DNA of 64,000 nucleotides from an uncultured Lentisphaerales bacterium (GTDB lineage: Bacteria; Verrucomicrobiota; Lentisphaeria; JABSQK01; UBA12247), in NCBI GenBank assembly GCA_943788985.1, contig CALSSJ010000007.1:10268-74267 (forward strand). Direction: 5' to 3'. Below are positions 14,610 through 61,800 of the stretch, one piece after another; position 1 is the first letter of the stretch; the number at the start of each line of letters is the position of its first letter. The notes under the pieces were generated by a model. That model was not told the origin of the DNA, did no database searches, and worked only from the letters and a program-made list of their open reading frames with translations. The position numbers and the translations under genes are program-made.

Positions 14610-14637
14610 AGCGAATAGCTCGTTGCTGCGCGAGCTC

Positions 14638-16410: not shown

Positions 16411-16552
16411 GGGCCTGCGTTTCGTGTTTCAAGAACAGGGTTCAGCTGCGGAATTCAGCGCTCTGCGACTACTGTATCTGAAGCGCACGCCCGCGCGCTG
16501 CGAACTCCGCAAATTGGCTCGCACGCTACTCAGCGCCGTGATCAACGCGGGC

Positions 16553-17554: not shown

Positions 17555-17561
17555 GGTGCGA

Positions 17562-17960: not shown

Positions 17961-18116
17961 ACAGCTTCCCTCGATTTGCTTGCGTTCTTCGATACGGTAG
18001 CTGATTCCACGGGGCTGCGCAAGGCAGAAGTCAGGGATGCCGCTTTTCCGGTTTGCGCACTTCGTCAGCGGCGCTATTCTGCATTGCAACCGCATACCGA
18101 CCCACGGCCGCACGCA

Positions 18117-41042: not shown

Positions 41043-42116
41043 ATGAATCAACACCCGACAAATGCTGCTGATGCCTTGGCCTTGATGAAGGAAAAGGTGG
41101 GCTCAGTGATTCCGGAGTTCGAACTCGAGGCTAAGGCCGAGTTGGTCGCGGAGATCGAACGACTCAAGATTGAGCGGAATGCGATTATTCTGGGCCATAA
41201 TTACATGGAGCCTGCGCTGTTTCATACGGTGCCGGACTTTGTCGGCGATTCGCTGGAACTCAGCCGCATCGCCGCGGAAGCGGAGCAGGATGTGATCGTC
41301 TTTTGCGGCGTCCGCTTTATGGCGGAAACCGCCAATATCCTGAACCCAAATAAGACGACGCTCATTCCGGCTCGCAAGGCGGGCTGCTCGCTCGCGGAAA
41401 GCATCACCGCTCAGGATGTGCGGGACCTAAGGAAAAAGTACCCGGGTGTTCCCGTGGTGACGTACATCAATACCTACGCGGATGTGAAGGCCGAGTGCGA
41501 TATCTGCTGCACCTCGGGCAATGCCAATGAGGTCGTAGAATCCCTGGGATCGGAGACGGTTATTTTTCTGCCAGACGAGTTTCTGGCCAAGAATGTGGCC
41601 CGGGAAACGGGGAAGCACATCATCGTACCAACGCGCGATCCCAAGGTGGATGCCGACGTGGACTACCAGATGATCGGCTGGCACGGGCGCTGTGAGGTGC
41701 ACGAGAAGTTCACAGTTGCGGACATCGCAGCGGCACGAGAGAGCTACCCAGATGTGATAGTCCTGACGCACCCGGAATGCCCGCCAGATGTGGTCGAGGC
41801 TTCAGATTTTTCGGCCAGCACGACGGCTATGGTGCGCTTTGTCCAGGCCAGCCCAGCCAAGCACTTTCTGATTCTCACGGAATGCAGCATGGCGGACAAT
41901 ATCGCCGCTGAGAATCCGGAGAAGGAGATGCTTCGCATGTGCAGCATTCGCTGCCCGCACATGAATGAGATCACGCTCGAGGAAACGCGCGATGCGCTGC
42001 GTGATATGCGTTACATCGTCGAGGTCCCCGAGCCAATTCGCACACGCGCCCGTCGTTCCGTGGAGCGCATGCTTGAGATCATGCCCAAACGTCAGGTTCA
42101 CGCGGTCACCGATTGA
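41043..42116 (+). CDS. nadA: Quinolinate synthase
   Basis: ILGHNY, GDSLEL, FCGVRFMAE, GCSLA, YINT, CEVH, HPEC, CPHM. Confidence 0.96.
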   Translation: MNQHPTNAADALALMKEKVGSVIPEFELEAKAELVAEIERLKIERNAIILGHNYMEPALFHTVPDFVGDSLELSRIAAEAEQDVIVFCGVRFMAETANILNPNKTTLIPARKAGCSLAESITAQDVRDLRKKYPGVPVVTYINTYADVKAECDICCTSGNANEVVESLGSETVIFLPDEFLAKNVARETGKHIIVPTRDPKVDADVDYQMIGWHGRCEVHEKFTVADIAAARESYPDVIVLTHPECPPDVVEASDFSASTTAMVRFVQASPAKHFLILTECSMADNIAAENPEKEMLRMCSIRCPHMNEITLEETRDALRDMRYIVEVPEPIRTRARRSVERMLEIMPKRQVHAVTD

Positions 42117-43516
42117 CACCCACCCGGGACTGTTGCCTGGAGTATGCGCTGGCCAGGCTGGGAAGCCAGCGCGGTATGCAGATCACTGGCGCATGTTTGG
42201 GGCTGGTAATCGTTGGGCTCTACCACTGGTTTGATGCCCGGGTTCCGTTTCTGCTGCTGTTCAGTATCCCGACGATATTGATCCTGCTGTCGGCGGTCCA
42301 GACCTTGAGTAAGGAAGAGGACATCACCGACGAATTGCAGCTGATTCGCATTACAGGTGCCCGACCGGTACAGGCCCTGCTGGCCGTGCTGCCTAACAAA
42401 GTGCTTGGCCACTTCGCAACGGTCCTGGCTCTGCTGCCATTTCTGGGGCTGTCCGGCGACAACGTGCTGCGCAACTGGGCGCTGGTCATCCATCTGCTGC
42501 TGGCGACCTTCGCCGTCATATTACTGAGCTGGCTGCTCCGCCTGCTTAGAGTCTTCGTGCGGCTGATGGTGATCGCAATCTTTGGCGGCGCAACGGCTAT
42601 GCTGGCGATCGCGGCGACCGTCTGGATCTACTCCTCCGATGCCTCGGCGAACGCCTGCTTGGTTTGCCTCCTCGGTCACGCAATTGTGATCGGCCTGTAT
42701 TGGGCCGCAGTGAGCCTGTTACAAGAAGGAGCGTACGCCCGCGTGTACGAGACAAAGCTAACGAAGCATACGGGAAAGCGGGAGCAGCGGCGCTCACGAC
42801 GCATCACTGGCTCTCCCGCGGAATGGTACGTCCGCTATCATTGCCTGTGCAGGCTGTCGAACTGGGGACGCTTCTTGATCTGTCTCGCCGGAACCGCAAT
42901 TCTGTATAGATGCGGTAGGGCTGTTGCCGACGCCTCGGCACTGCCGGGCGCGATATTTGGTGTCTCCCTGGCAGCGACGGGCATTCTTGCGCTTGTGTGT
43001 GAGGCCTTGACGCGCTATAACCACCTGAGTCGTCAGCACCACGACCTCCGCGCGCTTCCGCTGCGCGCCACCCCCGAGGCACTCGCGTTGTTCCTGCGTG
43101 ACCCAATTGTTGGGGCACTCAAGGCACTAGCTGTCCCTTGTGTATTCATTGTGACCGGCTCAATTCTCTGCAAAAGCATCATCCCGCCGCTGATCCTCTT
43201 AGTGTTTTTTCAGACCACGGCCGTCCAGTTCACACTGAACTGCTGCTACCCAACCTCCAAAGATCGCACGAGGGCCCGTACCTCCCAGCTTACGGACCCC
43301 GACACTACTAGAATCTTCCATTACATGTGGAGGAAGTTCTGGCACGCTCTTGGCTTTGTCATCCTTTTTATCCCCGGGGTCGGGGCAATCCTTGCTGCAA
43401 TCTGGGCAGTGAGGCTTTGGCGCGAGGGGAAGGCAATTCATGATCAGCCCCGCGACTTCTTGCCGGAGCCTAAGGCTACGGATGGCAAGCTGCCAAAAGC
43501 GGCAGGCGGGCTATAG
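42113..43516 (+). CDS. Hypothetical polytopic membrane protein (ABC-2-permease-like repeats)
   Basis: Many TM segments; two halves containing ELQLIRIT and DLRALPL. Start uncertain (TTG 42113 or ATG 42176). Confidence 0.6.
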   Translation: MTPTRDCCLEYALARLGSQRGMQITGACLGLVIVGLYHWFDARVPFLLLFSIPTILILLSAVQTLSKEEDITDELQLIRITGARPVQALLAVLPNKVLGHFATVLALLPFLGLSGDNVLRNWALVIHLLLATFAVILLSWLLRLLRVFVRLMVIAIFGGATAMLAIAATVWIYSSDASANACLVCLLGHAIVIGLYWAAVSLLQEGAYARVYETKLTKHTGKREQRRSRRITGSPAEWYVRYHCLCRLSNWGRFLICLAGTAILYRCGRAVADASALPGAIFGVSLAATGILALVCEALTRYNHLSRQHHDLRALPLRATPEALALFLRDPIVGALKALAVPCVFIVTGSILCKSIIPPLILLVFFQTTAVQFTLNCCYPTSKDRTRARTSQLTDPDTTRIFHYMWRKFWHALGFVILFIPGVGAILAAIWAVRLWREGKAIHDQPRDFLPEPKATDGKLPKAAGGL

Positions 43517-45007: not shown

Positions 45008-45487
45008 CTAGAGAAAATTGATGGTCAGCGGGTAGCGCCAGAGGACGCCTTCCTTGGCTTTGATGGCCCCGATAATCGGGTAGACCACGGTGAGGATACC
45101 AAGGATGATCAGCGGGATGAAGCCGATGACAATCAGGCAGAGTAGCCCGGAGACCACGGAATAGAGAAAAAGCGAAATGATCCAGTTTACAATCATTTTC
45201 CCATGCTCATCCACTGCGCTTGAGGTGTCCTTCTTCGCGACCCACATCGCGATGGGGACGATCAGCCCGCCGAGTGGGATCAAGTAGCCAAGCAGCTGTG
45301 TCAGGTGCATGCACAGCAGATATGTGTCTTCGTCTTTCATTAAATCACCCACTCCAGTTCCAAGATCCTTGATCACATCGCGGTCTTCTTTCAACAGCGC
45401 GGCCTTCGCCGTCTCGAACTCCTCGTCAGTCAACGCGCCAGCGGCGTGCAACTCCTGCAGTTTTTCCAGTTCATCGCTCAGGCTCAT
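45008..45487 (-). CDS. SHOCT + DUF4870 family membrane protein
   Basis: DELEKLQELHAAGALTDEEFETAKAALL (SHOCT); HLTQL...HGKMIVNW...GAIKA...YP; GGAGG SD. Confidence 0.85.
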   Translation of the reverse strand: MSLSDELEKLQELHAAGALTDEEFETAKAALLKEDRDVIKDLGTGVGDLMKDEDTYLLCMHLTQLLGYLIPLGGLIVPIAMWVAKKDTSSAVDEHGKMIVNWIISLFLYSVVSGLLCLIVIGFIPLIILGILTVVYPIIGAIKAKEGVLWRYPLTINFL

Positions 45488-45658
45488 CGCCTTCCTCCAT
45501 TCAGTCGCTCAGTTCGCATCCGTGCAGTTACTGTGCAGGCCACAGGTCAATCCGCAAAGCTACGAGGTGATGTTTATCGGTACTGGCATTCAGATCGAGA
45601 CACCGCCGAATCTTACGCGAGGAACGGACGCATTAGTGACGTCTATATATGTGGTGCC

Positions 45659-45736
45659 CAAATGATGTGCCCTCATTTGATTGACAGGTCCGACACGATA
45701 CTGTTTTGGTTTACTCATCTGAGCACAATCTCAGAT
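45659..45736. promoter_or_regulatory. Two inverted repeats flanking a TTGACA hexamer upstream of the transport operon
   Basis: CAAATGA-N7-TCATTTG (45659-45679), TTGACA (45681-45686), ATCTGAG-N6-CTCAGAT (45717-45736). Confidence 0.45.
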
Positions 45737-45801
45737 TCTGCGCCAAATTGATGGTGAAAATTGCCCACGCTCGACAAGATGATTAGCTTGGTTTCTTCCG
45801 T

Positions 45802-47829
45802 ATGACGCTCCGTAATTGGCTACGCGGCGGATCGCTCGGATTTCTGGGCGTGTTCCTAATCACCGGGCTCACCTATTTCAACGACAGCTTGCTGCAAGGC
45901 ACGTTCCTAATCGGGAACAACATGCCGTTCAGTGTCTATGGCACGCTCGTATTGATACTGGTGGCAAACGGAGCGGTTTACGGTGTGGCACGCAAGCTGG
46001 CGCTGACCGGGCCCGAGGTGGCACTGGCCATGGGGCTGACTCTGGCAGCCTGCTGTATCCCGGGCTCGGGGCTGATGCGGACGTTTCCCAGCAGCATTAT
46101 CCTGCCGCATCACTACGCCAAGACCAAGATCGCCTGGCAGAATTCTGATATTCTCTCGTACACACCCAACCAGATGCTTGTGGACGTGTCGGGCGATGAG
46201 AGCGGCGTGCTGCTCGAATATATCCAAGGACGAGACGGCAAGCCCGGAGATCCGCCGTGGGGTGCCTGGATGGAGACCCTGGGATTCTGGATCCCGCTGG
46301 TTCTGCTGATCTGGTTTGCCCTGCTTGGGCTCGCGCTGGTGGTGCATCGCCAGTGGTCGGAACATGAGCACCTGCCGTATCCCCTTGCCACCTTTGTCGA
46401 ATCCCTGCTGCCGTCGGATAACGGGGAGAAGTCCAGCGTCTTTCGCAGCCGGTCGTTCTGGGGTGCCTTCACCGTGGTCTTCCTGATCTACACGAATAAC
46501 TACTTGGTGACGGTCACCGAGATTCCCTGGATTCAAATGAACCTGTCGGTCGATATGCAGACGATCTTTCGCTACTTTGGGATCGTGAGCCCCGGACGAA
46601 TGGGCGCGCTGACCATTTACTTCAGCGTCATCGCCTTTGCCTTTTTCATTGCCACGCACGTCTCGTTTTCGGTCGGGATCTCGGCGTTTCTACACGCCAT
46701 TTTGGTTACAGTGCTGGTGGGAGCTGGTCTAAATATCAACGACGGCGGCTATTTCGCACCGAATCCGCAGAAGTTCATGATCTTCGGGGCATTCCTGATG
46801 ACGGCGCTGATCGTGGTCTATATCGGCCGAGACTACTACAAGCGCGTCGTCATGGCAGCAGTGGGCGCTGGTAAAGGCGGGCAGAAGATTGAGAGACACG
46901 CCATCATTGGCCTCTGGCTGGCCGTAGTTGCGACCATCGTAGCAATCGCCTGGATTACGCAATTGGGGCTGGACTGGCAGATTTCGACGCTGTACATCCT
47001 TTTCACCCTGATGTGTTTCTTTATTCTCTCCCGCATCCTCGCCGAGACAGGGCTGTTTTTCGTGCAGGCGTACTGGCTGCCATGCACCATTCTCATTGGC
47101 GCCCTGGGCCCCCAGGCGCTGGGTACCTCAACCATGATCACGTTACTGCTGCTCAGTATGGTCCTGCTGGTCGATCCGCGGGAGGCGTTTATGCCCTTTA
47201 TCGTGAATGTGTTGCGGGTCTCGGATCGCAAGAAGGTGAAACTTCCAGCCATGAGCGGTGGCATCATGGTCGCAGTGGTAGTCGGGCTGCTATTCTGCAC
47301 TTGGTTGACCGTCGGCCTGCACTACCGCTACGGCGGCCCGATGATGGATGTCTGGGCGACAGCCATGGTTCCGGTAATGCCGTTCGATACCGTCATCAAG
47401 GAGCATCAGCGCCTGGAAGCACAGGGCACCCGTGAACAGGCAGACGCGATTTCTGGCTTTGCCCGGTTTGGCGCGGCCAAACCGCAGGAAACCGATTTCA
47501 GCATCTTCTTTGCCTTGGGAATGGGGCTCGTTTTACTCTGCACGATGGCCCGCTTACGCTGGACCTGGTGGCCGTTGCATCCGGTCGCCTTCTTGATCTG
47601 GGCGAGTATGCCAGCCTATGCCTTTGCCTGGAGCTTTCTCATTGGCTGGGGGATTAAGGCCGCAGTCATGAAGTACGGCGGTGGCACCGTCTACCAGAAA
47701 CTCAAGCCGCTAATGTTTGGCCTGATCGCCGGAGAGCTCGTGGCTCTGCTCATCCCGTCACTCATCAGTATCCTCTGGTTTGTCGTGACTGGTGATAAAC
47801 TCCCACCCTTCAGGGTGATGCCAGGATGA
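45802..47829 (+). CDS. Large polytopic membrane protein, DUF6785/DUF6784-like (OPT-superfamily-like)
   Basis: 675 aa, ~16 TM; motifs RQWSEHEHLPYP, RILAETG, WWPLHP, GLIAGE. Family recalled from motifs, not searched. Confidence 0.7.
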   Translation: MTLRNWLRGGSLGFLGVFLITGLTYFNDSLLQGTFLIGNNMPFSVYGTLVLILVANGAVYGVARKLALTGPEVALAMGLTLAACCIPGSGLMRTFPSSIILPHHYAKTKIAWQNSDILSYTPNQMLVDVSGDESGVLLEYIQGRDGKPGDPPWGAWMETLGFWIPLVLLIWFALLGLALVVHRQWSEHEHLPYPLATFVESLLPSDNGEKSSVFRSRSFWGAFTVVFLIYTNNYLVTVTEIPWIQMNLSVDMQTIFRYFGIVSPGRMGALTIYFSVIAFAFFIATHVSFSVGISAFLHAILVTVLVGAGLNINDGGYFAPNPQKFMIFGAFLMTALIVVYIGRDYYKRVVMAAVGAGKGGQKIERHAIIGLWLAVVATIVAIAWITQLGLDWQISTLYILFTLMCFFILSRILAETGLFFVQAYWLPCTILIGALGPQALGTSTMITLLLLSMVLLVDPREAFMPFIVNVLRVSDRKKVKLPAMSGGIMVAVVVGLLFCTWLTVGLHYRYGGPMMDVWATAMVPVMPFDTVIKEHQRLEAQGTREQADAISGFARFGAAKPQETDFSIFFALGMGLVLLCTMARLRWTWWPLHPVAFLIWASMPAYAFAWSFLIGWGIKAAVMKYGGGTVYQKLKPLMFGLIAGELVALLIPSLISILWFVVTGDKLPPFRVMPG

Positions 47830-48701
47830 GTCGCGAAATGCAGACCGTATCTTGGCTGGGCATATCTATAGACGTACCGGCGGAATGGGAATTGCTCCAA
47901 TTCTCCCGCATGGCTAAGGCCGGAAATCTGGCTTGGGCCGATCGTTATGAGTTTCGCCTGGAGCTGACCTGGAAGGAAGCTGCCAGTGCCCCGGATCTCG
48001 ATCGCATCATGGATGACTATAAAGCAAGCCTGGTGGAGGAAGACCAGCCAGCGCCACAGCCGACATCGTGGGGGACCTGGCAAGGCTTGGTGGATGTCCA
48101 GCCTGGCGGCATGTCCCGATATGGCCATTACGAGGAAAGCGTCGGCCGTCTGTTAGAGCTGGTTTTTCTCTGGGAGAAGGAGCGGGACATGGACTTGGAA
48201 TACGCCGTGCTCAACAGCGTCAAGCCTGTGGACCACTGGCAGGCCTTTGGCTTGGAAGTGCGAACTCCGCAATTCCTGGAAATGACCGAATGCACCGTCC
48301 AGCCGGCCAATGTGCAGTGGACCTTCAGCGACAGTAAAAAGGCCAAGCATTCCTGGCACTTCGAGCGCATGGGCATGCTTGACGCTTGGCTCAACGTCCC
48401 GCTGGCTGCCTGGCTGCTCGGGAAGGAGCCAGTGGACCTGATCGATCGTCAGCCACAAGAAGCTCAGATCGCGGGTCATGACCTTGCCACCGTCACGGGG
48501 TTCGTGCCCGCCCTAAAATTTCCGCAGTTCAGCAAGCGCAGTGGCCGCTTTATCGGCGCGGCATGGGTCTGCCCCGTGGACAACCGCCTGTACTATGCCT
48601 CCATGATCGTGCCGCGTGACTACGAGGCCACGCCACAGCTGTTCGGCGGCAGCCTGCGTTGCTGCCCGGCCTGTACCAGCCATTCATTGGCGGCATCATG
48701 A
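47826..48701 (+). CDS. Hypothetical soluble protein with two similar halves
   Basis: ATGA overlaps on both sides; halves begin WLGISIDVP and WQAFGLEVRTP. Confidence 0.75.
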   Translation: MSREMQTVSWLGISIDVPAEWELLQFSRMAKAGNLAWADRYEFRLELTWKEAASAPDLDRIMDDYKASLVEEDQPAPQPTSWGTWQGLVDVQPGGMSRYGHYEESVGRLLELVFLWEKERDMDLEYAVLNSVKPVDHWQAFGLEVRTPQFLEMTECTVQPANVQWTFSDSKKAKHSWHFERMGMLDAWLNVPLAAWLLGKEPVDLIDRQPQEAQIAGHDLATVTGFVPALKFPQFSKRSGRFIGAAWVCPVDNRLYYASMIVPRDYEATPQLFGGSLRCCPACTSHSLAAS

Positions 48702-49063
48702 CCGAAGATCGCAAAACCTGGCGCCTCATGCTGGCCGGTGTGCCTGTGGCAAACCAAGCCGCAAAAGTCACCTATGTCGACAACTGCGCGCGCATTCTGG
48801 TGAAGCGCCACAAGCCGCATTTCCTGATTGCGCCGCTCTCCTGGGTCATCCGCCCACGTCTTGAGCGCACGGTGGAGCTGGAAGCCCTCGGAACCTACGT
48901 GTACGAGCTCTGTGATGGAAAACGTGATGTGGAACGGATTGTCGATCGGTTCTGCGCGCGGTACAGTCTTACCTTTCACGAAGCACGCGTGCTTGTCACC
49001 AGTTTCCTCCGGGGCTTGGTTGAACGCGGTGTGGTCGTTATCGTCAGTCCGGAGCGTTCATGA
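48698..49063 (+). CDS. PqqD/RRE family protein
   Basis: VELEALGTYVYELCDGKRDVERIV...FLRGLVERGVV matches the PqqD pattern; ATGA overlap at 48698. Confidence 0.82.
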   Translation: MTEDRKTWRLMLAGVPVANQAAKVTYVDNCARILVKRHKPHFLIAPLSWVIRPRLERTVELEALGTYVYELCDGKRDVERIVDRFCARYSLTFHEARVLVTSFLRGLVERGVVVIVSPERS

Positions 49064-50493
49064 AACAGATCGACGTCAAGGATCAGCCAAGTTTGGGCGC
49101 AGCGCGCACCCTGCGCTTGACCATCAATGGCATTCGCTATCGCCTGTTTCGTTCCGCTGTAACCGTGACCGTGATTGTGGTCGCTATCGCCTTCCTCACC
49201 AACAGCCTGGCTGAAGGCTTGGTGCGCCGCGCGGTGGCTGCGGACACCACAAAAGAATTGAAAACAGTCGGCAAGGCCCGCTCTTGGGCGGGACAGCTAC
49301 AGTCCGTGGGAACCCGCACCGGCATCCTGGATGCCTTGGTCGCTGGAGAGCCAATCTTTGGCCCCACCCCAGACGCCACGCTGCTTGGCCAACTGAGCCA
49401 GACCCAGACGCTGATCCAATCACTAGAATCGCTGTCATACGGGCATCGCCGAACGCTCGTGCATAATCGCACAGGCACCACCATGCTGGACTACTTGGCC
49501 ACCACTGATCAACGCGCAGCGACCGAAGCAGCCCTGACCACCAATCGGCGGATTCGCCTCAGCGCCGAGGGGCCCGCCCTGGGAGCAATCCTCGATGCGT
49601 GGCCAACAGTATCCGCAGCGATCGACGCCGAATCAGCGGCCCGCAAAGCCGCGCTGAAGGCCCTAGCCCCCGCCTTGGCCGGGAGTACCCCGCTGGAGTG
49701 CCTGACTGAGGCGGACGGCCCATTCGGCAAGCAGATGCTCGACGCAGGCGTACCATTCCCGAGTGCCGACAGTGCGCTCATCGCGGAACAGGCCAAGGAG
49801 GCGCTCGAGCAAGCCAAGCTCGAGAAATTCATGAGTATGGCCAGCGTACGACAGCGTGTCGCTGCGAGACAAGATCTTCTCCCCAACGATGTGACCGCGC
49901 CATACCTCTGGAAGTCGCTCCGCAGCAAAAAGTTCGCCGATTGGTTTGCGACAGCCTGCGCTGAAGAGGACCCCGAAGCGGTGCTTGCGGGAGAGCGCCT
50001 GCAGGAGCTGGCCGAGCACTACCGCGCCCATCGGCGCCTGGAATCCGCCGCAGCCCTCGGCGCCGGGATCAGTGGTGGTTTTCTTGGCCTTGGCCCGCGC
50101 CTTGGCTGGCTGCTGTTGATCTCCATGATGGTCTGTGGTGTCGGCATCGCTAACGCCATGTTGATGACTGTCACCGAGCGTTTCAAGGAAATTGCCACCC
50201 TTAAGTGCCTGGGGGCGCTGGATGGTTTCGTGATGTTGACCTTCGTGCTTGAGGCCAGCCTACTCGGACTGGCTGGCGGCTCAGTCGGGTCGGTCTTGGG
50301 GATGGGAATTGGGCTCATGCGCATGACCACCGTATATGGTAGCCGCGCGATCAGCGCCGGTAGCGTCACCGAGTTTTTGCTCGGTATTCTCGCGGCCGTT
50401 GCGGTGGGGATCCTGCTGGCCATTGCTGCCGCCATCTATCCCTCGCTTCGCGCCTCGCGCCTCGCCCCGATGGAGGCGATGCGCGTAGAATGA
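49060..50493 (+). CDS. FtsX/MacB-type ABC permease
   Basis: N-terminal TM, large loop, GIANAMLMTVTERFKEIATLKCLGA, YPSLRASRLAPMEAMR. Confidence 0.9.
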   Translation: MKQIDVKDQPSLGAARTLRLTINGIRYRLFRSAVTVTVIVVAIAFLTNSLAEGLVRRAVAADTTKELKTVGKARSWAGQLQSVGTRTGILDALVAGEPIFGPTPDATLLGQLSQTQTLIQSLESLSYGHRRTLVHNRTGTTMLDYLATTDQRAATEAALTTNRRIRLSAEGPALGAILDAWPTVSAAIDAESAARKAALKALAPALAGSTPLECLTEADGPFGKQMLDAGVPFPSADSALIAEQAKEALEQAKLEKFMSMASVRQRVAARQDLLPNDVTAPYLWKSLRSKKFADWFATACAEEDPEAVLAGERLQELAEHYRAHRRLESAAALGAGISGGFLGLGPRLGWLLLISMMVCGVGIANAMLMTVTERFKEIATLKCLGALDGFVMLTFVLEASLLGLAGGSVGSVLGMGIGLMRMTTVYGSRAISAGSVTEFLLGILAAVAVGILLAIAAAIYPSLRASRLAPMEAMRVE

Positions 50494-50533
50494 AGAGGCA
50501 CCTTCCAGAATTCCCCAAGGTAAGGGCGCCGGC

Positions 50534-51328
50534 ATGAGCGAAACATCCACCGAACAGCCAGCAGCGGCTCCTGCTGGCGCTGCTTCTACCGACGCCCCGG
50601 TCATCATTCGGACTGTCCACCTGAAGAAGGAATACGACCGAAAGGGTGTGATTACGCAGGCGCTACGCGGTGTGGACATGACGATCCATTCTTCGGAATT
50701 CATCGCGGTTATGGGACCGTCCGGCTCCGGAAAAAGTACCTTTTTCAATATGATCGGTGGCTTGGACAGCCCCTCGTCTGGCCGTGTCTTCATCGACGAG
50801 GTAGACGTCGCCCAGCTGTCAGCCGGAGAACTCGCGTTTCTGCGCTGCCGCAAGATCGGCTACATTTTCCAGAGCTATAATCTCATCCAGTACCAGACCG
50901 CACTGGAGAACGTCACCACGCCCATGGCTTTCGCGGGAGTAGATCCTGATGAGGCGCGACGCCGTGGCATGGAACTGCTCGATCTGGTCGGGTTGAAAGA
51001 CCGCTGGTTTCATCGCCCTATCGAAATGTCCGGTGGCCAGCAACAGCGTGTGGCCATTGCCCGCTCACTGGCAAATAACCCCATGATCTTGCTGGCCGAC
51101 GAGCCCACGGCCAACTTGGACCTGCGGACGGGCCAGGAAGTGCTAAACATCTTGCAGCGTGTGAACGAAGAGAAGCAGGTGACCATTATTTGTGCCACTC
51201 ACGATCACCGCATGTTGTCTATTTGCGATCGCCTGATCTGGATTCGCGATGGCGGCATCGAGCGCATCGCTCGCCGAGACGAGGTCAACATCGAGGTTGG
51301 CGCCATCGAAGGCGAGGAGGACGAATGA
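50534..51328 (+). CDS. LolD/MacB-type ABC ATPase
   Basis: [46 protein letters not shown]. Confidence 0.95.
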   Translation: MSETSTEQPAAAPAGAASTDAPVIIRTVHLKKEYDRKGVITQALRGVDMTIHSSEFIAVMGPSGSGKSTFFNMIGGLDSPSSGRVFIDEVDVAQLSAGELAFLRCRKIGYIFQSYNLIQYQTALENVTTPMAFAGVDPDEARRRGMELLDLVGLKDRWFHRPIEMSGGQQQRVAIARSLANNPMILLADEPTANLDLRTGQEVLNILQRVNEEKQVTIICATHDHRMLSICDRLIWIRDGGIERIARRDEVNIEVGAIEGEEDE

Positions 51329-54300
51329 AAATCGGTTCTGCCAAAATTCTTGCCGCTTGCCTAAGCCTGTGTCTTTCCCTCTACGCTGGGACATTTAGCG
51401 AGGACACAGCGGCGCTGACTTCCACCCCCACCCGCCTGCTGGGCACCCCTGGCAACGACGCGGCACATGCCTATGTCATCAGCCAGCTCAAGGAAGCAGG
51501 CCTAGCCCCGATTGAACAGCCATTCCGCTTTGCCAAGTATGCCGCCGGGCGTAACGAGTTGGTAGCAGCTGGGAAGTCGCTGCAGTTGCAGCCGATGGCG
51601 CCCAATATGATCATTCCGCCAGTCACACCTCTCGAGGGGGTTACCGGCTGGCTGATTGACGTAGGCGACGGCTCGCTGGCCAACTATCCGCACCCGCTGC
51701 CGGACGGCATGATCGTGGTGATGGACTACGCAAACGGAGACCGCTGGCGTGATGCGTTTCGCTGCGGAGCCCAGGCCGTTATCTTTGTCGGCGCCCCCGG
51801 AGATACCTCGCGCGAATCACAACATTCACTGGCTCCAGCCAACCTCATACGCGCCTACTACGGGGGCCCACGCTCCGCATTGCCCGTGGCACAGACAGTC
51901 ACCTTGCACGTCAGTGCGAACTGGGCACCGACCATCGCGACCAACGTCATCGCAGTCGTACGAGGGACAGATCCCATCTATGACGAGGATCGCGGTCCAG
52001 AGTCTGTGATACTTTCGGCACCGCTCGACTCGTCAGGCGAGGTCCCACACCGCGCCCCGGGCGCACGCAATGCCGCAAACATGGCCGCCTTGCTCCAAAT
52101 CGCCCGCGACTACCAAGCCAATCCCCCGCGGCGCAACACCATCTTCGCGTTCCTGGATGCGGACGCTTGGGGACATCTCGGTGCCGGCTACTTCTACCGT
52201 ATTTTTGAGCGTGAAAAACTGCTTGGAAACGCTGCGCTGAGCATCCGCCAGACCTCTTCCCAGGACGAACAGAGCCATTGGGAAACCGTGCTGGAGCAGC
52301 TAGCCCAAGATGACCCGTTCAGTGGCGACAAAGGCGCGCTGATTCTGAAGGAGATGCAGGACTTGGCGTCCGAGAAAGTCGACCGACTCAACGAGGACAT
52401 CGGCATACTCCGCCTCGCCCAGGAACGGGACAAGGCAGACCATGCAGCCGAGATTGAGGATCTGGCGACGGAGAAAACCGAATGGAATACGATGCGTCGG
52501 TTCGTGGCCACCGAAGACCCAGCAGATTTCAATGAGACCGTTGACAAGCGTCGAAGCCAGCTAATTACTGAGTTTCAGGAAAATATCCAAGCTCGCAAGG
52601 AAGAACTGGCTACGAAAACCCTCGCCCAAGTGGCAGAGGCAGCGGTTTTGGAGCAGGCCGGAGGCCCCTTTGTCTCCCTCCATATCTCACTTGCCCTGAG
52701 CGATGCCAGCGAGCACTGGGGCGTGGCCATCGGCGGCGCTTCGCTCTCGCGCACCGGGTACGATATTGACGGCCTTTATTCGCGCATCGGCGCCGCCTGT
52801 CAGTCCGCCGCCGCAGACTGCGGATCCGAAATGATGGCCGTACAATCGTTCGACGGCAGCCTGGCCAGAGGGGACGCGATCATGGGGACATCCCGCTACA
52901 CGCACAGCGGTGCTATCGCTGGCATGCAGGGAATCTACAACATTTCGCTGGCAACAGTATTCGACTCACGCCCTCGCGAAGGCACCCCCCAGGACACCGT
53001 CGCCGCGCTGAATCTCCCGCGCCTTGCCGCGCTGGCCGCCGACCTGCAGCCCTTCCTGCGCAAGCTGATCGATGAGCCGATGATTTCTAGCGCCCGCGGG
53101 ATTCGCCCAAGCGCCTTCTACCTTTGGCCCGAGTTTGACGGGGATAAGGTTAGGGGCGCGCTGGCGGTAAGCGCCGCAGGCGGCAGTTCGATGCCGAATA
53201 AACGCACGGTAAACGTCATGGTTTGGTCGCAGCTGGGCGATCACGCAGCTGCGATGCAGGCAAAGCACATCCCCGGATTTCACGATGGTTTTTTTGCCTT
53301 TACAGATCACTCGGGTGCCCTCGAAATGGGGCCATTCCCGAGCGTTCGGCGGCCGTCATGGGTCTATGGCTTTGCCGCCACTTTCGACGACCGTGGTGCG
53401 GTCACTCGCGCCCTGGCCGACGACAGCGCCTCCAAGCTTCACGAACGGATGAATCTGTTCGACGTAAGTCATGGCGCCGTTATCCTGCCAGCCACGCTTG
53501 ACGCCACCTTCAAAGCTGACGTGTTGGACGCCAGAACAGACGGAAAGCTTGAGCCAAAACGCAGCGCCGTCCTCACGACCGATGGTGTGACTTCCTGGTT
53601 CTGTCCCAAAAAAATCACGCGCGTCAAGCTCTTCCAGGCGGGCCACCGGGCCACCATTTCTATTCTAGGAGCCGAAGGTGAGGTCGCGACGACCGGAAGC
53701 GCGCTGGGCAAGGGAATCCCAGTATCGGGTAAACTCCCTTCATCTGTGGTCTCGAGCGCAGCCATTGACCTTTGGACCCTAAACGAATCACGCCTAGACC
53801 TGCTACGAAACCGTGGGATCAGTAATCAGTCCCTCGAGGAGCTACACGGCCGAGCACAGGACCTGATTCGGCCAGTTGAGCCGTACACATCCTCCGAAAT
53901 CGAACAGGCCGCGCATTCCATGGCACTCGGGATTCAGCATCGCTCCTACACACCCGTGCGGGCCATGCTGGATGATCTGGTCAAGGCTGTCCTAGTCCTC
54001 CTTGCCCTGAGTGTGCCGTTCGCCTTCTCCCTCGAAAGGCTGCTGCTGGGCTCTACCAAAATTCACAAGCAGATCCTCTGGTTCGTCGGTTTCTTCCTCG
54101 CCACCTTTCTGCTGCTGTATGTCAGCCATCCGGCCTTCGCCATCTCCCAGACACCCGTCATCATCTTTCTCGGCTTCACCATCATTGTGCTCGCTGCCAT
54201 GGTGATCGTGATCATCATGCAGCGTTTTCAGACCGAGCTACGTGTCCTGCAAGGCCTGGAAACCACCGTTCATGCCGCTGACGTCTCTCGACTTGGCACA

Positions 54301-56048
54301 ATCCTGGCTGCGATGAGCATGGGCGTCTCCTCCATGCGTCGCCGGCCTTTGCGCACTGCCCTGACTGCGTTGACGATCATCCTCCTTACCTTCACCATTC
54401 TTGGTTTTGCGTCGTTCGGCGCTGAACGCGCCGTGCTTCAGTTTTACGTGCAGCCAGCTCCTGCCTACCCGGCAGTCAGCACCCACGACCTGTCTTGGGA
54501 GCCCATTCCGGAAGAAACCGCGCGGACAGTGAGCACGCTCTACCAGAACCGAGTAACCGTCACAACGCGCCGCTGGAATAGTGCTGAGCAAAATAAGAGC
54601 CTGCAGGCAGTCCTTGGCACCCCGGACGGCAGCCGCCTCGTAAATTTCGACGGCATCCTCGGCATTGGTGCAGACGAGGCAGCCAGACGGCCCGAGATCG
54701 CAGAAATCCTCAAATCTACGGCTGCCCATGAGCAGAGCGTCTGGCTCACGGCTGCTGCCGCGCAACGCGTCGGGGTAGCCCCCGGTGACTCGGTCATCTT
54801 CAACGGCCAGTCGCTGATTGTCGGTGCGCTGCTGCCCACCGCAAAGCTGACCTCGCTAGAAGACATTGATGGCTCGAGCATCCTGCCTGTCGACTTCTCC
54901 CAAGAAGACCCCATGCAGGCGCCAGCAGCCGAAGATCTCGAAGCTGCTGCGAACGTCGCAAAGTCCTTTACTGCCATCGCCGCAGACGCGGTGGTCATTG
55001 TCGGCACCGAGACTGCCAGAAAACTCAACGCCCCAGTGCGCGGCATCTTTCTCTACCCGGACACACTGGAAACCGCTGACGAGCTCGCGCAGGACCTGGC
55101 ACGCGCGCTCCCTCTTCCTGTGACTGGGACCCGAGCAGATGGCGTCTACCGCAACGTCCTCGGCACCGCCTTGGCTGCCAGCGGCGTCAAATCTCTGTTC
55201 TTCCCCCTGCTTCTGGGCGGCTTGGTGATTTTCGGCACGATGCTCGGCTCCGTCGCGGATCGTAAACAGGAAATTTACACGTTCAGCGCGCTTGGCCTGG
55301 CCCCACCGCACGTCGCCGGGCTATTCTTTGCCGAAGCGCTGATTTACTCCATCATCGGCGGCTCGGCGGCTACCTGCTCGCACAGGGCAGCATGAAAGGG
55401 CTTGAGCTCGTGGCCAATACGGGCATGATCCATCTGCCCGAGATGAACTTCTCCTCGACCAATGCGATCGTGACCATCGTTATCGTCATGGGCACCGTTA
55501 TGATCAGCGCGATCTACCCCGCAATTCGAGCCTCAAAATCTGCCAACCCCGGCGTCTTGCGCTCCTGGAAACCACCCGCACCCGTCGGCGATTGCCTTTC
55601 CCTGACCTTCCCGTTTACCGTCAGCCAGTACGACATTACCGGAGTCGTTAGCTTTCTGCGTGAGCATTTTGACGCCTGTAGCGACGTCGGTATGGGGGCA
55701 TTCATGACCAGATCTTCGTCGCTTAAAAGTCGAGACGACGGCCAATTACAACTCGACGCCCAACTGGCCCTGGCCCCCTTTGACCTTGGCGTCACACAGT
55801 CATTCTCGCTGTTCAGCAAGCCCAGCGATATCGAAGGAATCGATGAAGTGGGAATCGAGATTGTGCGCCAGTCGGGCCAACCGCGCGACTGGGCCCGTCA
55901 GAACAAGGTCCTCTTGGACGACCTTCGGACCCAGTTCCTGCTGTGGCGCGCCCTGCCCAAAGAAACCGTAGAAATGTACCGCCTGCGCACGCTCGAATCG
56001 ATCGGCGGTGGGAGGCAAGCAGCGCAATCTGGAGTGGCCAATGGCTGA
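51325..56048 (+). CDS. ~1570-aa fusion: signal peptide, PA/M28-peptidase-like domain, TM bundle and FtsX permease; frameshift near 55362
   Basis: NVIAVVRG, APGA..A..MAALLQIAR, GTPQDT; RRRPLRTALT, SVADRKQEIYTFSALGL. Restoring one base gives IIGGLGGYLLAQGSMKGL...IYPAIRASKSANP. Confidence 0.85.
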
Positions 56049-58030
56049 CGAAGAAAAAGTTGACCAAGAACTAGAGATGTACCGGGACCTGATGCAGGTC
56101 CCAGACACCTTTGAAGAGGGCTTCAGCTGGAGTTCCATGCTGGGGGCCATGTTCATCGGTCTGGTCATGGTGCCTGGCGCCTTGTACATGGGTCTCTTGG
56201 CTGGTGAAGGCATCGGCCCTGCTGCGCAGTGGGTGACGGTCATTCTCTTTATCGAAGTGGCCAAGCGCGCCCACCGGACGCTCAAGAAGTCCGAGCTGTT
56301 CGTCCTCTATTGGATGGCTGGGGCCGCTATGGGAGCCCCGTTCTCCGGCTTGCTCTGGAACCAATATTTTATTGGCAGCGATGCAGCCGTAAAACATGGC
56401 ATTGCTGGAGATATTCCTGACTGGTGGGCACCCGCAGTCGACTCTGTTTCCTACGCCAAGCGCTCCTTCTTCCATTCCGACTGGCTGCCAGCCATCCTGC
56501 TGATTTTTCTCGGCACCTTTGTCACCAGCCTCAAAAACATGGTGCTAGGCTATGGCCTGTTCCGGATCACCAGCGACATCGAGAAGCTCCCCTTTCCCAT
56601 GGCCCCCATCGGGGCTCAGGGCATCATGGCCTTGGCCGAAGATTCAGACGAGGCCAGCGCCGACAAGGCTGAAGATAGCTGGCGATGGCGAACCTTCGCC
56701 ATCGGCGGCGCAATTGGACTTTCCTATGGATCTGTCCTGTATCTCTTGCCCATCGTGACCTCTGCGCTCACCGGCACCTCGGTGCAGATCTTTCCGCTGC
56801 CGTTCGTGGATTGGAGCCCGACGACCGGCAAGTGGCTACCAGCCGTGGCCACTGGCTGGAGCTGGGATGTGGCGAATATCGTGACCGGTATGGTCTTGCC
56901 ATTTTGGGCAATGGTCGGCAGCTTCCTCGGCCTGGTCTTCACCATGATTCTCAACCCCATCTTGGTCGAGACCAACGTGCTCGACATGTGGACGCCTGGC
57001 GATGGTACCGTGGCCACGTTGTACAAGAACACGATGGACTTCTACTTCAGCTTCGGCATCGGCGTCAGCCTGGCCATCTTTCATCGCCGGCCTCTTCCAG
57101 GTCTTCTACAGCATCAAGCGAACGCGCAGGAAGCGACAGGCTGCGATGGCAGAGCCATCGCGAACGACCAACATCACCGAGCGTGGTGACATCCCCTGGA
57201 AATGGGTCATTATCACCTACGTCGTCACCACCCTTGGCTACATTATGCTCTGTGGCTGGCTGATCGAGTGGCACCGAGGCGTCATGATGGTCATGTTCTT
57301 CCTCGGCTTCGTCTATACCCCGCTTATCAGCTATGTCACCGCACGTCTAGAAGGTATTGCTGGCCAAGTGATCGAGATTCCAATGGTCCGGGAAGCCGCA
57401 CTCATCCTCAGCCAGTACAGCGGCGCGAAAGTCTGGTTCCTACCCATTCCGATCGCAAACTACGGCCAGATGACCATGTTCTACCGCAAGTGTGAGCTAC
57501 TCGGCACCAAGTTTACGTCGATCTGGAAAGCGCAGCTCTTTATGCTGCCGATGATCCTGGTCTGCAGTATCTTCTTCGCCAACTTTATCTGGGGTCTCGC
57601 CCCCGTCCCATCCTCCATCTATCCCTATGCCAACGTGATGTGGGAATTGCGCGCGGAGCAGACCTGTATCATCTACACCTCGACCATGGGCGAGTACAGC
57701 CAGTTCGAGCAGGCCTGGAAGCCCGAATACCTCGCCGCTGGTGCTGGTTTCGGCACCTTACTGTTCTTCGTACTGACCAAGCTCGGGGCGCCGATCTTCC
57801 TGGTCTACGGCGTGGTTCGTGGGCTCGGCCAATCGATGCCCCATGACATTTTGCCGCAGTTTGTCGGCGCTCTCATTGGCCGCTTTTACTTCTACAAGAA
57901 GTTTGGCAAGGCCTGGCTCAGATATATACCCATCATCGCAGCCGGCGTCGGCTGTGGAATGGGTCTGGTGACGGTGCTTGGCATCGGGATCACTTTCCTT
58001 AGTAAGTCCGTCGTCCAACTGCCGTATTGA
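56041..58030 (+). CDS. OPT-superfamily-like membrane transporter, frameshift at 57079-57081
   Basis: FEEGFSW, AQWVTVILFIE, DIEKLPFP, APVPSSIYP; an extra T in CTTTC splits ORFs 56008..57189 and 57002..58030. Confidence 0.75.
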
Positions 58031-58032
58031 TC

Positions 58033-58758
58033 ATGGACCAAGAAGTACTCATCACTATTACCGGCGTGAAGAAAATCTTCACCCTAGGCAAGCTCGAGAT
58101 TCACGCGCTCAAGGGCATCGACCTGACGATTTATCGCGGCGAGTACCTCTCGATCATGGGGCCGAGCGGCTCTGGTAAGTCCACGCTGTTCAATATGGTC
58201 GGCGCGCTCGATACGCCGTCTCTGGGCCAAGTCGAAGTCGCAGGACATGACCTGACCTCACTGAGCAGTCGCGAGCTCGCTTACTTCCGCGGCAATCACA
58301 TCGGCTACGTCTTCCAGGCCTATAACCTGATTCCCGCCTACAACGCGATCGACAACGTCGCCATGCCCCTCATTTTCAGCGGCATGGAGTATGACGAGGC
58401 CTGCGAGCGTGCCAAGCAGGTACTCGGCCGCGTGGGCTTGGGCGAGCGCATGACCCATCGTCCCGACGAGCTTTCCGGCGGGCAACAACAGCGTGTCGCC
58501 ATTGCCCGGGCGCTAGCCAACGAGCCCGCCATTATTCTCGCCGACGAGCCGACCGCAAACCTTGACCTGCAGACCGGCGCCGATATCATCGAGCTGCTCA
58601 AGGAGCTATGCCGCGAGACCGGCAGCACCATCGTCACCACCACCCATGATCACAAGATGCTTTCCGCCAGCGATCGTATCGTCTGGATCAAAGACGGCCA
58701 GGTGGACAAAGTCCAGCTTCGCGACGAGATCGAGATCAAGGTCGGCGACATCCATTAA
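58033..58758 (+). CDS. LolD/MacB-type ABC ATPase (second copy)
   Basis: [46 protein letters not shown]. Confidence 0.95.
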
Positions 58759-58841
58759 GCTGCGACGCAGCTGTAAAATCCCGGAAAACGGGTTCTGGTA
58801 CCTGCTTCCCTTCTGTTCGTAGCCGCTTTTCGAGAAACCGC

Positions 58842-61800
58842 ATGAGAACCATCCTCTCCGTCATTGCCGTGCTACTGGCTTCGGTGAGCCCGCTCTTGGC
58901 GATCAGCGACGGCTTCGAGTCCGGAGACTTTTCCGGGGCAGGGTGGGAGCACGGCTCCCCCGCCGCTAGGACCATCGACAACACACCGACTCGGAAACCG
59001 GTATACCTATTCCGCCACCGCCACCGCGCCTAAAATGGTCAGGAAACCCAGCCTACCGCCTGCGCGTCATCTGCGGAGAAGGACAGGTTCAGTTCTCCCG
59101 CAAGGTCTCTAGCGAGGCCTCCTACGACTACCTGCGCTTCTACCCTGGATGGTGAGTTGGCCGCAAGCTGGAGCGCGCGAGTTGGACTGGCTCACAGTGG
59201 CCTTTTCAGTCTCTGCTGGTTTACACGACTTTCGCTGGGTCTACGAGAAAGATGTTTCAGATGCGGCCGGCGACGACCGCGCCGTGGATCGATGACGTAT
59301 CCTGCGCCCGACCAGGGCGAATGGTCCGCCCATGATACCTTTGCCGCCCCCTCTTGGACGCCGGACGCTGGTCCCAGCAGCAATTCCGGAAACGGGGAGC
59401 GCTCCCCGCCAGCGCCAACGGCAGCGTCACGCTAGCCACGGGCAGCAATGGTGCGAGCAGCAATGGTGCGAGCAGCATCACCAGCACCTCCATGCCCGCA
59501 GAAGTGAAGGCCTGCTGGCCGCCTTTACCTTCATCGGCGAAGGCGAGGCACACGTGCTCTTTGAGCTACTCGATGGCCGCCAGCGTCGCAGTCGAGATTG
59601 GCCCCGATCAGGCTGCCGGCCGAACATTCGGGGACCCGCCCGAATCGTGGGCGGCCAAGATGCAGAAGACGTCTGCGCCGTGGGTAGCAGGGGCTGGCCA
59701 CTCGCGGTGTGCAAGACGGTTTCCAGGCTCAATTCTGCGGCGGCACTCTCATTCACCCCCAGCTGGGTGCTCACTGCCGCGCACTGCATCGAAGGGGGTC
59801 CAGGCCGAAACTGTGGATGTCATTCTGGGCCCGACGCGATCTGTCCTCCTCTGATGGAGAGCGCATCCCCCGTGGCAGAGATCATCCCACTCCCCCGGCT
59901 ACGATCCGGTTACCCCTGGACCGCGATCTGGCTCTGCTGCGGCTAGAAACACCTTCCACCATCACGCCACTGCCTCTGATCACTAGCGCAGATCAATACG
60001 CACCGGGCGTCGTCGCGACCATCCTTGGCTGGGGGAACACTATCGGAAGGGGGCGCTTCGCCCAATCGCCTTCAAATCGCCGAAGTCCCGATCGTATCCA
60101 ACGCGACCGCGAACGCCTCGCCTCTGCTCAGCGGGGTCACCGACAACATGTTCGCCGCCGGTTTCGCAAGCGGCGGGGTCGACACCTGCCAGGGCGACAG
60201 TGGTGGCCCCATCATTGTCCCTGACCGGGCAGTTGTGGCACCCTCGCCGGCGTCACAAGCTGGGGAATCGGCTGCGCCCCAGCCACAAGGACTACGGCCC
60301 TCCTACACGCGCATCGAGAACTTCCTGACCTGGATCAGTGACCACGTCGGCGCGCGCCAACTCACCGCGCGGCTCCTTCAGGGCGACGTCGCCCTTGCGG
60401 AGTCCGCAACCCTCAACACGAGGCGCGGACGCCTTTCGAATCGCCCTGCGCACCGATGACGGCATTCGGCCTCGAACAGAACGGGCTGACCATTTGGGAG
60501 GCAGAGACTGCAGCTTCCGGCACGATTACGGGACTTGCGATCTCCGCACTTTCTGATGAAGGCCCCCACAACCATCTCCCTAGACGAGGTCTCACTCTAC
60601 GATGGCGCTGCCCAAGCGCCGCCTGCGGTCATCCCCTGAGTTCTCGCTGCCCCCCGCGCGCCCATCGGCGGCCAAGTAAGCTGTGATGTCGTGCTTGTCG
60701 GGCCCACCGGCACCTATGCCGTGACCAGCGAACTGCACTACCCCTCTGCCTACCTAACACCGCTGCAGTTGCCCGCCAACATCACCCACCAAGCCCCGGG
60801 AATCCTGAGCGTGGTCATTCCCGAGAGCACGTTGGGCCCGACCACGATCCTCGGCACCGTCTTGTTTTCCGTATCTGCCACTGCCCCAGTCGAGGCAACC
60901 GTACAGACTGCGAACTCCGCAACCACCATCGCCGATTCGATCGAGCAAGGGTCGGCTACCCTGGCCATCATCAACGCCGTGCCGTACGACCTATTCGAGG
61001 CACCGCTGGTCTTGGATCCGTTGAGCGGGACAGTGACCGGATCCGTAGACGGAGCCAGCGCAGAGGATAACGAGCCAACCCACACGAGCTTGGGGAAGGG
61101 CGCTTCACTCTGGTTTTCATGGACCGCACCAGCGGATGGGCACGTGTCCTTCGATACGTTCGGAAGTCTCTTCGACACCGTTCTGGTGGCCTACCAAGGT
61201 GCCGCCTTGGACTCCCTTACCCCGCTCACCGAAAACGATGACGTCTACCAGACCCTGCGCAGCCGCATTGTGCTGCCAGTAAAGGCCCGACAGAATGTCC
61301 GGATCGCCCTCGACCAGGTGTCCCAGGCCAACGCCACTTTTCAGCTACAGCACAGTTTTCGCCCCACCCTGATCCAGGTTGGGGGCACGACCGAAGATTG
61401 GCAGGGAGCCCCGGAATACCAGTGGGAAAGCTTCGGAAATGCCCCCTGGACCGCAGATGCTGGCGCGCTGCGCAGTGGCGCTGCAGGAGACTCTGGGCCT
61501 GAGCGGCATCGAAACCTACGCCGCAGTCGGTACGGGCAGCGTCGAGTTTCGGCTACGCACCAGCTCGGAATTCACCTACGATTTCTTGGTCTTCACCATA
61601 GATGACGTCATCACAGCGAAGTGGAGTGGTGAGATCGCCTGGCAAACCTATACGGCCAACGTGAGCCCTGGCCTGCATCGCTTCTCCTGGATGTACAGCA
61701 AGGACCCCAGCTTCGGTGCCTTTGAGGATGCGGTCTGGATTGATGATATCAGCCTGCCGGCCCCAGACCCGCTCCAGCTAGCACGAACTCCCGGGACGAC

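Follow-up and report, generated by a model that had tools for sequence, protein, structure and literature searches.

A conserved eight-gene cluster encoding two FtsX-type permeases, two ABC ATPases and a probable OPT-family protein in an uncultured Lentisphaerales bacterium

What work could be done by a set of proteins in which two different FtsX-type permeases, one of them carrying a peptidase-like head, are encoded side by side with two ATP-binding cassette (ABC) ATPases, a divergent OPT-like membrane protein and a PqqD-like protein? The question is raised by a gene cluster at 45802–58758 of a 64,000-nucleotide stretch of DNA (the window; positions 10,268 to 74,267 of the forward strand of contig CALSSJ010000007.1) from an uncultured Lentisphaerales bacterium. 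The source assembly, GCA_943788985.1, is a metagenome-assembled genome (MAG), 83.6% complete and in 48 contigs. Type VII ABC systems (MacB, LolCDE, FtsEX, BceAB) are a small, well-studied set that perform mechanical work outside the inner membrane. A widely conserved operon that always pairs such a system with an OPT protein, here joined by a dead-peptidase head and a cytoplasmic pair of peptide-binding type, points to a manner, so far unexamined, in which ATP could drive transport or work on the envelope, and it is carried by uncultured marine, gut and sediment bacteria of the Planctomycetota-Verrucomicrobiota-Chlamydiota (PVC) group and of other phyla. A first-pass annotation, made from the DNA letters, had known of no functional description; full-text literature searches, whose coverage does not extend to subscription journals, likewise returned no description of such a system and no paper on DUF6785 or DUF6784; what they did return concerns a census of transporters, FtsEX-EnvC, the ABC systems of M. 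tuberculosis and ECOD.

We have very little doubt that the genes, here called A to H, form one conserved system, and the evidence for this is given first. How the system works is a separate matter, on which a mechanism is proposed below and weighed against its rivals. New here are the fold of B, the predicted binding of B to C, a peptidase M28 head devoid of metal ligands, and a system-specific tail on both ATPases. The first-pass annotation had counted seven genes; the cluster has eight, all on the + strand, each overlapping or almost abutting the next. The co-oriented, overlapping arrangement that it described is as stated, with ATGA start/stop overlaps at 47826, 48698, 49060 and 51325 and an 8-base overlap between F and G at 56041. 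G and H meet at TTGA/ATG (58027–58033), and the sole intergenic gap in the cluster, 40 bases, lies between D and E. The features are as follows.

A, 45802 to 47829, + strand: 675-residue polytopic membrane protein with DUF6785 and DUF6784
B, 47826 to 48701, + strand: 291-residue cytoplasmic protein (by sequence) of no named family, modeled as two tandem PsbP/Mog1-fold domains
C, 48698 to 49063, + strand: 121-residue PqqD/RRE-like protein (RRE, RiPP recognition element; RiPP, ribosomally synthesized and post-translationally modified peptide)
D, 49060 to 50493, + strand: 477-residue FtsX/MacB-type permease
E, 50534 to 51328, + strand: 264-residue MacB/LolD-class ABC ATPase
F, 51325 to 56048, + strand: giant M28-FtsX permease, about 1575 residues after frame repair
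Frameshift 1 (in F), 55361 to 55362, + strand: one C absent from the assembly
G, 56041 to 58030, + strand: divergent, probably OPT-family polytopic protein, about 663 residues after frame repair
Frameshift 2 (in G), 57078 to 57082, + strand: one surplus letter in or beside a TTT run
H, 58027 to 58758, + strand: 243-residue second MacB/LolD-class ABC ATPase, with its start at TTG 58027 or ATG 58033

A pattern scan with the alignment of B yielded 63 related loci, every one in the record of a metagenome-assembled or otherwise uncultured genome; the titles of these records mention Planctomycetota, Verrucomicrobiota (including Opitutales, Kiritimatiellia, Lentisphaeria and Victivallales), Omnitrophota, Sumerlaeia and Fibrobacterota. 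When these loci were searched by tblastn with the window proteins, 44 of the 63 proved to have D, E, F or G as well, arranged as B-C-(A)-D-E-F-G-H, a recurrence far beyond chance. C was found in 53 of the 63 and always adjoins B, and H-type orthologues come after G wherever the fetched DNA extends that far (L038, L050, L058, L061). The position of A varies: it precedes B, lies between C and D, or is not in the locus at all. In twelve loci B or B-C stands by itself amid housekeeping genes, with 3 kb or more of sequence available downstream, and the remaining seven are too short to judge. A G orthologue (65–68% identity) was present elsewhere in all five genomes with a lone B or B-C locus that were tested. 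Median identity to the window is 76% for E, 62% for the C-terminal part of F, 56–60% for G and 51% for H (a value that mixes in E-type hits); it is lower for C (42%), the N-terminal part of F (39%), D (38%), A (37%) and B (34%). Clustering of all open reading frames (ORFs) in the 63 loci produced no further family in more than five loci, except for three larger clusters of antisense frames lying over conserved genes, an artefact of the greedy ORF picker.

Co-inheritance was examined in an even set of 201 genomes of the window's phylum, where B is found in 21 genomes, the G family in 27 and the A family in 25. At B E<1e-10, G at least 890 bits (the window's G being scored as its two pieces together) and A at least 440 bits, the identical 20 genomes are returned for all three. 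In the 21st genome with B (G085) the B match spans only 47 residues and the G relative scores 486 bits. In another six genomes all relatives of G are lower-scoring ones, and in five of the six a weak relative of A lies a few kb from them. Since related genomes are not independent of each other, the co-occurrence of A, B and G is read as a pattern and not as a statistic. Both surveys support the view that the genes form one conserved, co-inherited system.

A second version of the set, with the same kinds of gene at 22–57% identity and in a different order, occurs in four loci, and the window's own genome holds dispersed second copies:

L073, the fullest: A'-F'-G'-unassigned 307-residue ORF-C'-D'-ATPase-ATPase
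L075: F'-G'-A'-D'-ATPase, with a weak B-like match
L072: A'-F'-G'-C'-ATPase
L074: only A'-F'-G'
F'-G' of the own genome, C14:54888-61119, minus strand: 27–47% and 35–41% identity
D'-E'-H' of the own genome, C17:156369-158936: a 341-residue D'-like FtsX permease, then two ATPases with tails ..EELDFNS.. and ..EEFDLES..
A' of the own genome, C11:105066-107441: 791-residue DUF6785 protein

Since the set appears to have been kept through an old duplication, we take this retention as strong evidence that its parts work together.

One of the two ATPases was called LolD-type in the first-pass annotation, and the searches place both in the MacB/LolD class. Both match Pfam ABC_tran (5.2e-31 for E and 3.7e-34 for H), and the top NCBIfam model for each is LolD TIGR02211, at 215 bits (E) and 238 bits (H) against a cut-off of 307.75. 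The highest-scoring models (LolD, DarD, FtsE, DevA and MacB) are in every case under their equivalog cut-offs. E and H are 50% identical to one another, and the Walker A motif, the signature, the Walker B with its Glu and the H-loop (THD) can be read intact in both. The distinctive tails noted earlier are present, RDEVNIEVG in E and RDEIEIKVG in H. The E tail is kept as ..RRDEVxIEVG.. in 35 loci; an H tail of like pattern is seen in the window's H and in the two complete orthologues available (L005 and L058), five E-type tails being also listed under H in the tally. Neither form occurs in four other MacB-type ATPases of the same genome (on C12, C46, C2 and C37). On the sequences compared, the tail is specific to this system.

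That the cluster encodes two FtsX permeases, one of them fused to an M28 domain, is borne out by the Pfam matches of D and F. D matches FtsX at 2e-12 over residues 352–469 and is laid out as transmembrane helix 1 (TM1), an Ala-rich extracytoplasmic domain of about 290 residues, and TM2–4. Searched as a profile against the Protein Data Bank, it retrieves 5xu1_M (4.2e-19) and MacB (2.5e-18), as well as LolF, YtrF, LolC/E and FtsX, all through TM2–4 only; the outer domain has no match to any known family in the profile search or among solved structures. On the NCBIfam MacB and LolCE models D lies far under the cut-offs (lolCE 38 bits vs 362). F exceeds the Pfam cut-offs just barely for both Peptidase_M28 (24.8 bits, cut-off 21.3) and FtsX, and its profile matches the MacB-type permeases 5xu1_M, MacB, LolF and YtrF through the TM2–4 core only. 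From its N-terminus F has a signal peptide, a PA/M28 nicastrin-like head, a coiled coil, further periplasmic domains and three TM helices, the periplasmic head amounting to about 880 residues; an FtsX-type TM1, extracytoplasmic domain and TM2–4 come next, and then a conserved cytoplasmic C-terminal domain of about 170 residues. Both proteins therefore show the type VII permease layout, an FtsX four-TM core with a TM1–TM2 domain of about 290 (D) or 240 (F) residues.

The first 300 or so residues of F match the PA-domain M28 aminopeptidases 2ek8 (1.6e-12) and YwaD (3.5e-8) and also Nicastrin (1.4e-7). As to the M28 fusion claimed at first pass, the fold match stands and the peptidase does not. 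Compared with the active enzyme 2ek8, HHDS has become anlDs, GANDD has become Garg-a and GAEENG has become daqarg, so that the two-zinc site is lost (first His to N, bridging Asp to G, Glu-Glu to A-Q). The match stops before the last metal ligands, and the first His is kept in a few relatives of F. By its residues the M28 head is a catalytically dead, nicastrin-like domain, and with the catalytic residues lost it would be a binding head rather than a peptidase.

Two OPT-like proteins had been proposed, and of these G is probably one and A is doubtful. The placing of G as a divergent member of the OPT family comes from its relatives: in the G-family alignment of 17 rows, two of which are the window's own G pieces, 14 match PF03169 OPT at E<=10, the best at 3e-11, and the three rows that do not are the window's two pieces and G of L038. 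A search of solved structures with the G profile returned no OPT chain and nothing meaningful (complement C2 at E 1.4). G is the best conserved membrane protein of the set, with a mean column identity of 67%, and its family is small, with 380 representative clusters at E<=1e-30 in 1.84 billion. Six longer representatives were examined. Four of these (P0015, P0018, P0023 and P0040) have a PDZ domain or a beta-propeller (WD40 or Reg_prop) inserted, a fifth has a sub-threshold Reg_prop match and one has none. In the long proteins the match to the hidden Markov model breaks near profile position 555, which corresponds to a K/R-poor loop of the L038 protein flanked by K/R-rich loops in a crude hydropathy analysis; because of this distribution of charge the loop is probably periplasmic, and inserts at such a place hint that a ligand is captured on the periplasmic side.

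A matches DUF6785 (6.8e-75, 252.9 bits, cut-off 25) and DUF6784 (1.9e-20, 73.3 bits, cut-off 26.4), as do all 20 rows of its alignment, that is, the window protein and 19 relatives. Crude hydropathy shows 16 peaks, several of them overlapping, and the search of solved structures with the A profile found nothing. Comparison of A with the G family by hhalign gave a probability of 14% (E 0.002), centered on one common E-x-LP[YF]P motif. This is too weak to call A an OPT relative, and A is possibly a distant member of the OPT superfamily.

The two remaining proteins, B and C, should be cytoplasmic, since no signal peptide is seen in either by eye. B has no Pfam or NCBIfam match and is rare, with 11 protein clusters among 5.8 billion; in the ESM Atlas it is found only in unnamed 'hypothetical protein' clusters from Thermodesulfobacteriota, Gemmatimonadota and Armatimonadota, which hints at a range beyond the PVC group. 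An AlphaFold2 model from a 70-row alignment (predicted local distance difference test, pLDDT, 92.9; predicted template-modeling score 0.88) has two similar alpha/beta domains, in agreement with the two-repeat soluble protein described at first. Foldseek relates it to PsbP, DcrB, Mog1 and Apa with probability 1.00, E of 4.6e-5 to 3e-3 and target-normalised TM-scores of 0.45–0.53, the closest matches including the PsbP chains 8z9d_P (4.6e-5) and 4rth_B (1.3e-4) and the two-domain TplEi/Tli4 (5h7z_B, 5.7e-4); each target spans about half of B. We model B as two tandem PsbP/Mog1-fold domains, the whole of which would resemble the type VI secretion immunity protein TplEi/Tli4. The PsbP/Mog1 fold serves the binding of other proteins.

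C is PqqD-like, as had been proposed, with a Pfam PqqD match of 9e-10 (39.2 bits vs a cut-off of 23.4), and all NCBIfam models of PqqD type score it under their cut-offs. Modeling of the PqqD-like protein with a partner, an idea of the first-pass annotation, supports binding to B: the predicted B–C complex has an ipSAE of 0.86 in three runs, compared with 0.19, 0.04 and 0.02 for the controls, and the mark used for this score is attained by 116 of 157 solved complexes and by 2 of 215 mismatched pairs. The three runs share 95% or more of their contacts, and the partner pLDDT is at least 77. The interface brings together invariant or almost invariant residues of B (E22, L24, R40, P160, G183 and D252-R254) and of C (invariant W8, E79, F93, H94 and E95, almost invariant L12). 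B is thus predicted to bind C, and we know of no solved complex of this kind. A RiPP pathway was considered for C and rejected, as no precursor or enzymes accompany the cluster. A scan of the 63 loci and the window for a conserved small ORF (20–110 residues) outside the covered stretches, itself a weak test, gave only low-complexity groups from high-GC frames, and ORF clustering showed no RiPP maturation enzyme recurring in the 63 loci.

How do these parts compare with known systems? LolCDE is similar in that it pairs two different FtsX-type permeases whose TM1 and TM2 are separated by a single extracytoplasmic domain, in its MacB/LolD-class ATPase, in working on the outer face of the inner membrane and in the lack of an adaptor or duct gene. 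It differs in having one ATPase where the present system has two different ones, and the extracytoplasmic domains are unrelated in sequence, the Lol models scoring far under their cut-offs. Moreover, F adds the long head, three TM helices and the cytoplasmic tail domain, and the present system is accompanied by OPT-fold proteins and by the PqqD-like/PsbP-fold pair. The MacB-type pumps (MacAB-TolC, 5xu1, YtrEF and LolF), which work by mechanotransmission, ATP turnover moving the periplasmic domains without anything passing through the permease, provide the best matches of TM2–4 of D and F and of the ATPase class. Unlike in MacAB-TolC, no MacA-type adaptor or TolC is present in these loci, and unlike in MacB the ATPases are separate genes, not fused to the permease, and the system would be heteromeric. 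No gene for a MacA-type periplasmic adaptor or an outer-membrane duct was found in the 63 loci, a search that did not cover the rest of the genomes.

Most relatives of G match the model of the OPT/Yellow-Stripe-like family (PF03169, TC 2.A.67) and are similar to its members in size and in their many membrane spans. Known OPT proteins act alone as proton-coupled importers of peptides or metal chelates, whereas G is very divergent, is always encoded directly after an FtsX-type permease and in some family members has PDZ or propeller inserts. The F head matches both Nicastrin of gamma-secretase and the PA-domain M28 aminopeptidases by profile, and like Nicastrin it is without metal-binding and catalytic residues; unlike them it is bacterial, is fused to an ABC permease, is followed by a coiled coil and other domains, and has no protease partner. 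C resembles PqqD/RRE proteins in scoring above the Pfam PqqD cut-off and differs from them in that no precursor peptide, radical-SAM or other maturation enzyme is present and the specific NCBIfam models stay under their cut-offs. B has two tandem domains as in TplEi and differs from the PsbP/Mog1-fold binders (PsbP, DcrB, TplEi/Tli4) in being cytoplasmic by sequence and in having no sequence relative in a named family.

In the mechanism that we propose, D and F would pair like LolC and LolE and would be driven by an E–H ATPase dimer. That these four form one motor is suggested by analogy to LolCDE, with its two unlike permeases, and to importers with two unlike ATPases. ATP turnover would move the periplasmic domains of D and F, as in other type VII ABC systems, and these domains would capture or deliver a substrate, peptide-like or oligomeric, that the dead-peptidase head holds. 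The substrate would be handed to the OPT-fold permeases and cross the inner membrane, import being thought likelier than export, and the cytoplasmic B–C pair would take it up or regulate the motor. For the mechanism as a whole, that is, a heteromeric type VII motor of D, F, E and H coupled to OPT-fold permeases and acting on a peptide-like substrate, we put the chances at about even. What we infer rather than observe is its stoichiometry, how the motor is physically coupled to G and A, what it carries and in which direction.

Several points weigh against this mechanism. D-E and F-G-H could be two separate pumps, and the most constant adjacent pairs are indeed F-G and D-ATPase. OPT proteins are proton-driven importers that need no ABC partner, and the link of A to them is weak, at the hhalign probability given above. 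B-C stands apart from the remaining genes in 12 of the 63 loci. The cluster has no gene for a periplasmic adaptor or an outer-membrane duct. The peptide substrate is without direct support, the M28 head being just a fold relative. A further step, which we put forward tentatively as possible, is that the cluster represents a hybrid class of transporter, a type VII mechanotransducer obligately built with OPT-fold permeases, in which capture in the periplasm, driven by ATP and made by the nicastrin-like head, would feed a channel with the fold of a secondary transporter, and the RRE-like/PsbP-fold pair would take the incoming peptide or dock on the conserved, beta-strand-like ATPase tails and gate the motor. 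The modeled B–C interface, the tail motif of the ATPases and the probably non-biological nature of both frameshifts (see below) offer handles for experiments.

Could the system instead export, or protect the envelope in the manner of MacAB, BceAB or DevCA? C together with B would then recognise a peptide that crosses via G or A, and the D/F motor would expel or handle it. PqqD-type domains are known binders of RiPP leader peptides, the best ATPase models include the darobactin and bacteriocin export ATPases (all under cut-off), and MacB-type systems are established to act on periplasmic substrates. We nevertheless consider this reading unlikely, as the clusters have no conserved small ORF nearby, the 63 loci share no recurrent gene for a maturation enzyme, an adaptor or a duct, known OPT proteins are importers, and a large dead-peptidase head fits capture better than expulsion.

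A handler of lipid, lipoprotein or other hydrophobic cargo, in the manner of LolCDE, is an improbable alternative. Here the permease heterodimer would extract a membrane-anchored molecule, which a helix-grip-like cytoplasmic domain of F and the PsbP-fold protein B would bind or sense. The fold match on which this draws is within the range of common arrangements, all Lol models are far under their cut-offs, and the extracytoplasmic domains have no sequence likeness to those of Lol proteins; the OPT-fold proteins and the RRE would be left unexplained.

Equally hard to credit is that D-E, F-G-H and A are independent transporters which, with an unrelated B-C pair, travel together on a mobile or often-transferred block. 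The separate B-C loci, the moving or missing A and the dispersal of the own genome's second copies over C14, C17 and C11 would suit such an origin. It is opposed by the distribution of the A, B and G orthologues, which coincide in 20 of the 201 genomes surveyed, by the presence of G in five of five genomes whose B or B-C locus stands apart, by the second version, which is preserved most fully in L073 and in part in three further loci, and by the gene overlaps, which imply translational coupling.

The first-pass annotation treated F as a single open frame of about 1570 residues; in the window it is split by a frameshift, and G likewise. The open frame of F stops at 55395, midway through the FtsX core, and is taken up again at 55392 in a different frame (pieces 51325–55395 and 55392–56048). 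G consists of 56041–57189 and, in another frame, 57002–58030. Alignment to relatives places the breaks at about 55362 and 57080, both single-base indels. The halves of F lie in a single ORF in all 35 related loci that hold its C-terminal part, and those of G in all 26. The region 55000–57400 is present in 20 listed public runs from 10 studies of marine and estuary metagenomes, four of the runs being RNA libraries, and it was compared with contigs of three DNA runs and one RNA library (X2, X4, X5 and X12) from four different studies. An extra C behind 55361 is found in all contigs of all four, and throughout their depth the four are one letter shorter than the window at 57078 or 57082; the two differences restore the frames of F and G. 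Contigs drop rare variants, which limits the verdict that can be drawn from them.

We read both breaks as assembly errors or a minor variant rather than as gene decay, because the intact form is found in all four runs and the relatives have single ORFs, and because the window differs from the four runs nearby and the copy on C14 is broken too. That F and G are pseudogenes in the source organism, for which one could cite their both being frameshifted and the second copy on C14 with its in-frame TGA and frame change, is very improbable and was rejected, given the intact reading at both sites in contigs of near-identical sequence from four studies, one an RNA library, and the departure of the window from all four runs within 56805–57072, suggestive of poor consensus.

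Some smaller observations concern the same regions. Just before frameshift 2 the window has six single-base differences from all four runs (56805, 56928, 56958, 57048, 57063 and 57072), which look like a locally poor or mixed-strain consensus. A 1-base gap at 51979 in one contig of the RNA library (depth 6.3) is absent from the DNA runs and was taken as a contig error. Run X4 has almost no cover over 45500–50460 (0.16 in one bin), which says nothing about absence. In the C14 copy, a single in-frame TGA interrupts G', and F' passes from one frame to another at about 57900–58000; these breaks may be small assembly errors or decay of the second copy. Split genes are also seen in related MAGs: in L021 F is in two pieces (13780–15741 and 15558–18614) and D in two ORFs, in L050 D is in two ORFs, and in L066 B is in two pieces.

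Contigs of one RNA library match eight stretches of the cluster at >=99% identity, a hint of expression that is qualified by the fact that such contigs can contain DNA. A consensus scan for promoters and terminators over 45300–59400 was uninformative, with 4 and 8 sites compared with shuffled expectations of 4.6 and 11.6. The flanks of the cluster are unrelated to it: upstream are NadA, a DctM permease and a minus-strand DUF4870 gene, and downstream are Ig-domain proteins. In the spacer after H, at 58965–58981, contigs of two DNA runs (X2 and X5) are 2+1+2 letters shorter than the window, which may reflect strain variation or an assembly flaw in non-coding DNA. Between NadA and the DctM-type permease lies an ORF of 467 residues (42113–43516, + strand) that has no Pfam match and may be a fused or divergent small/periplasmic component of a tripartite ATP-independent periplasmic (TRAP) transporter.

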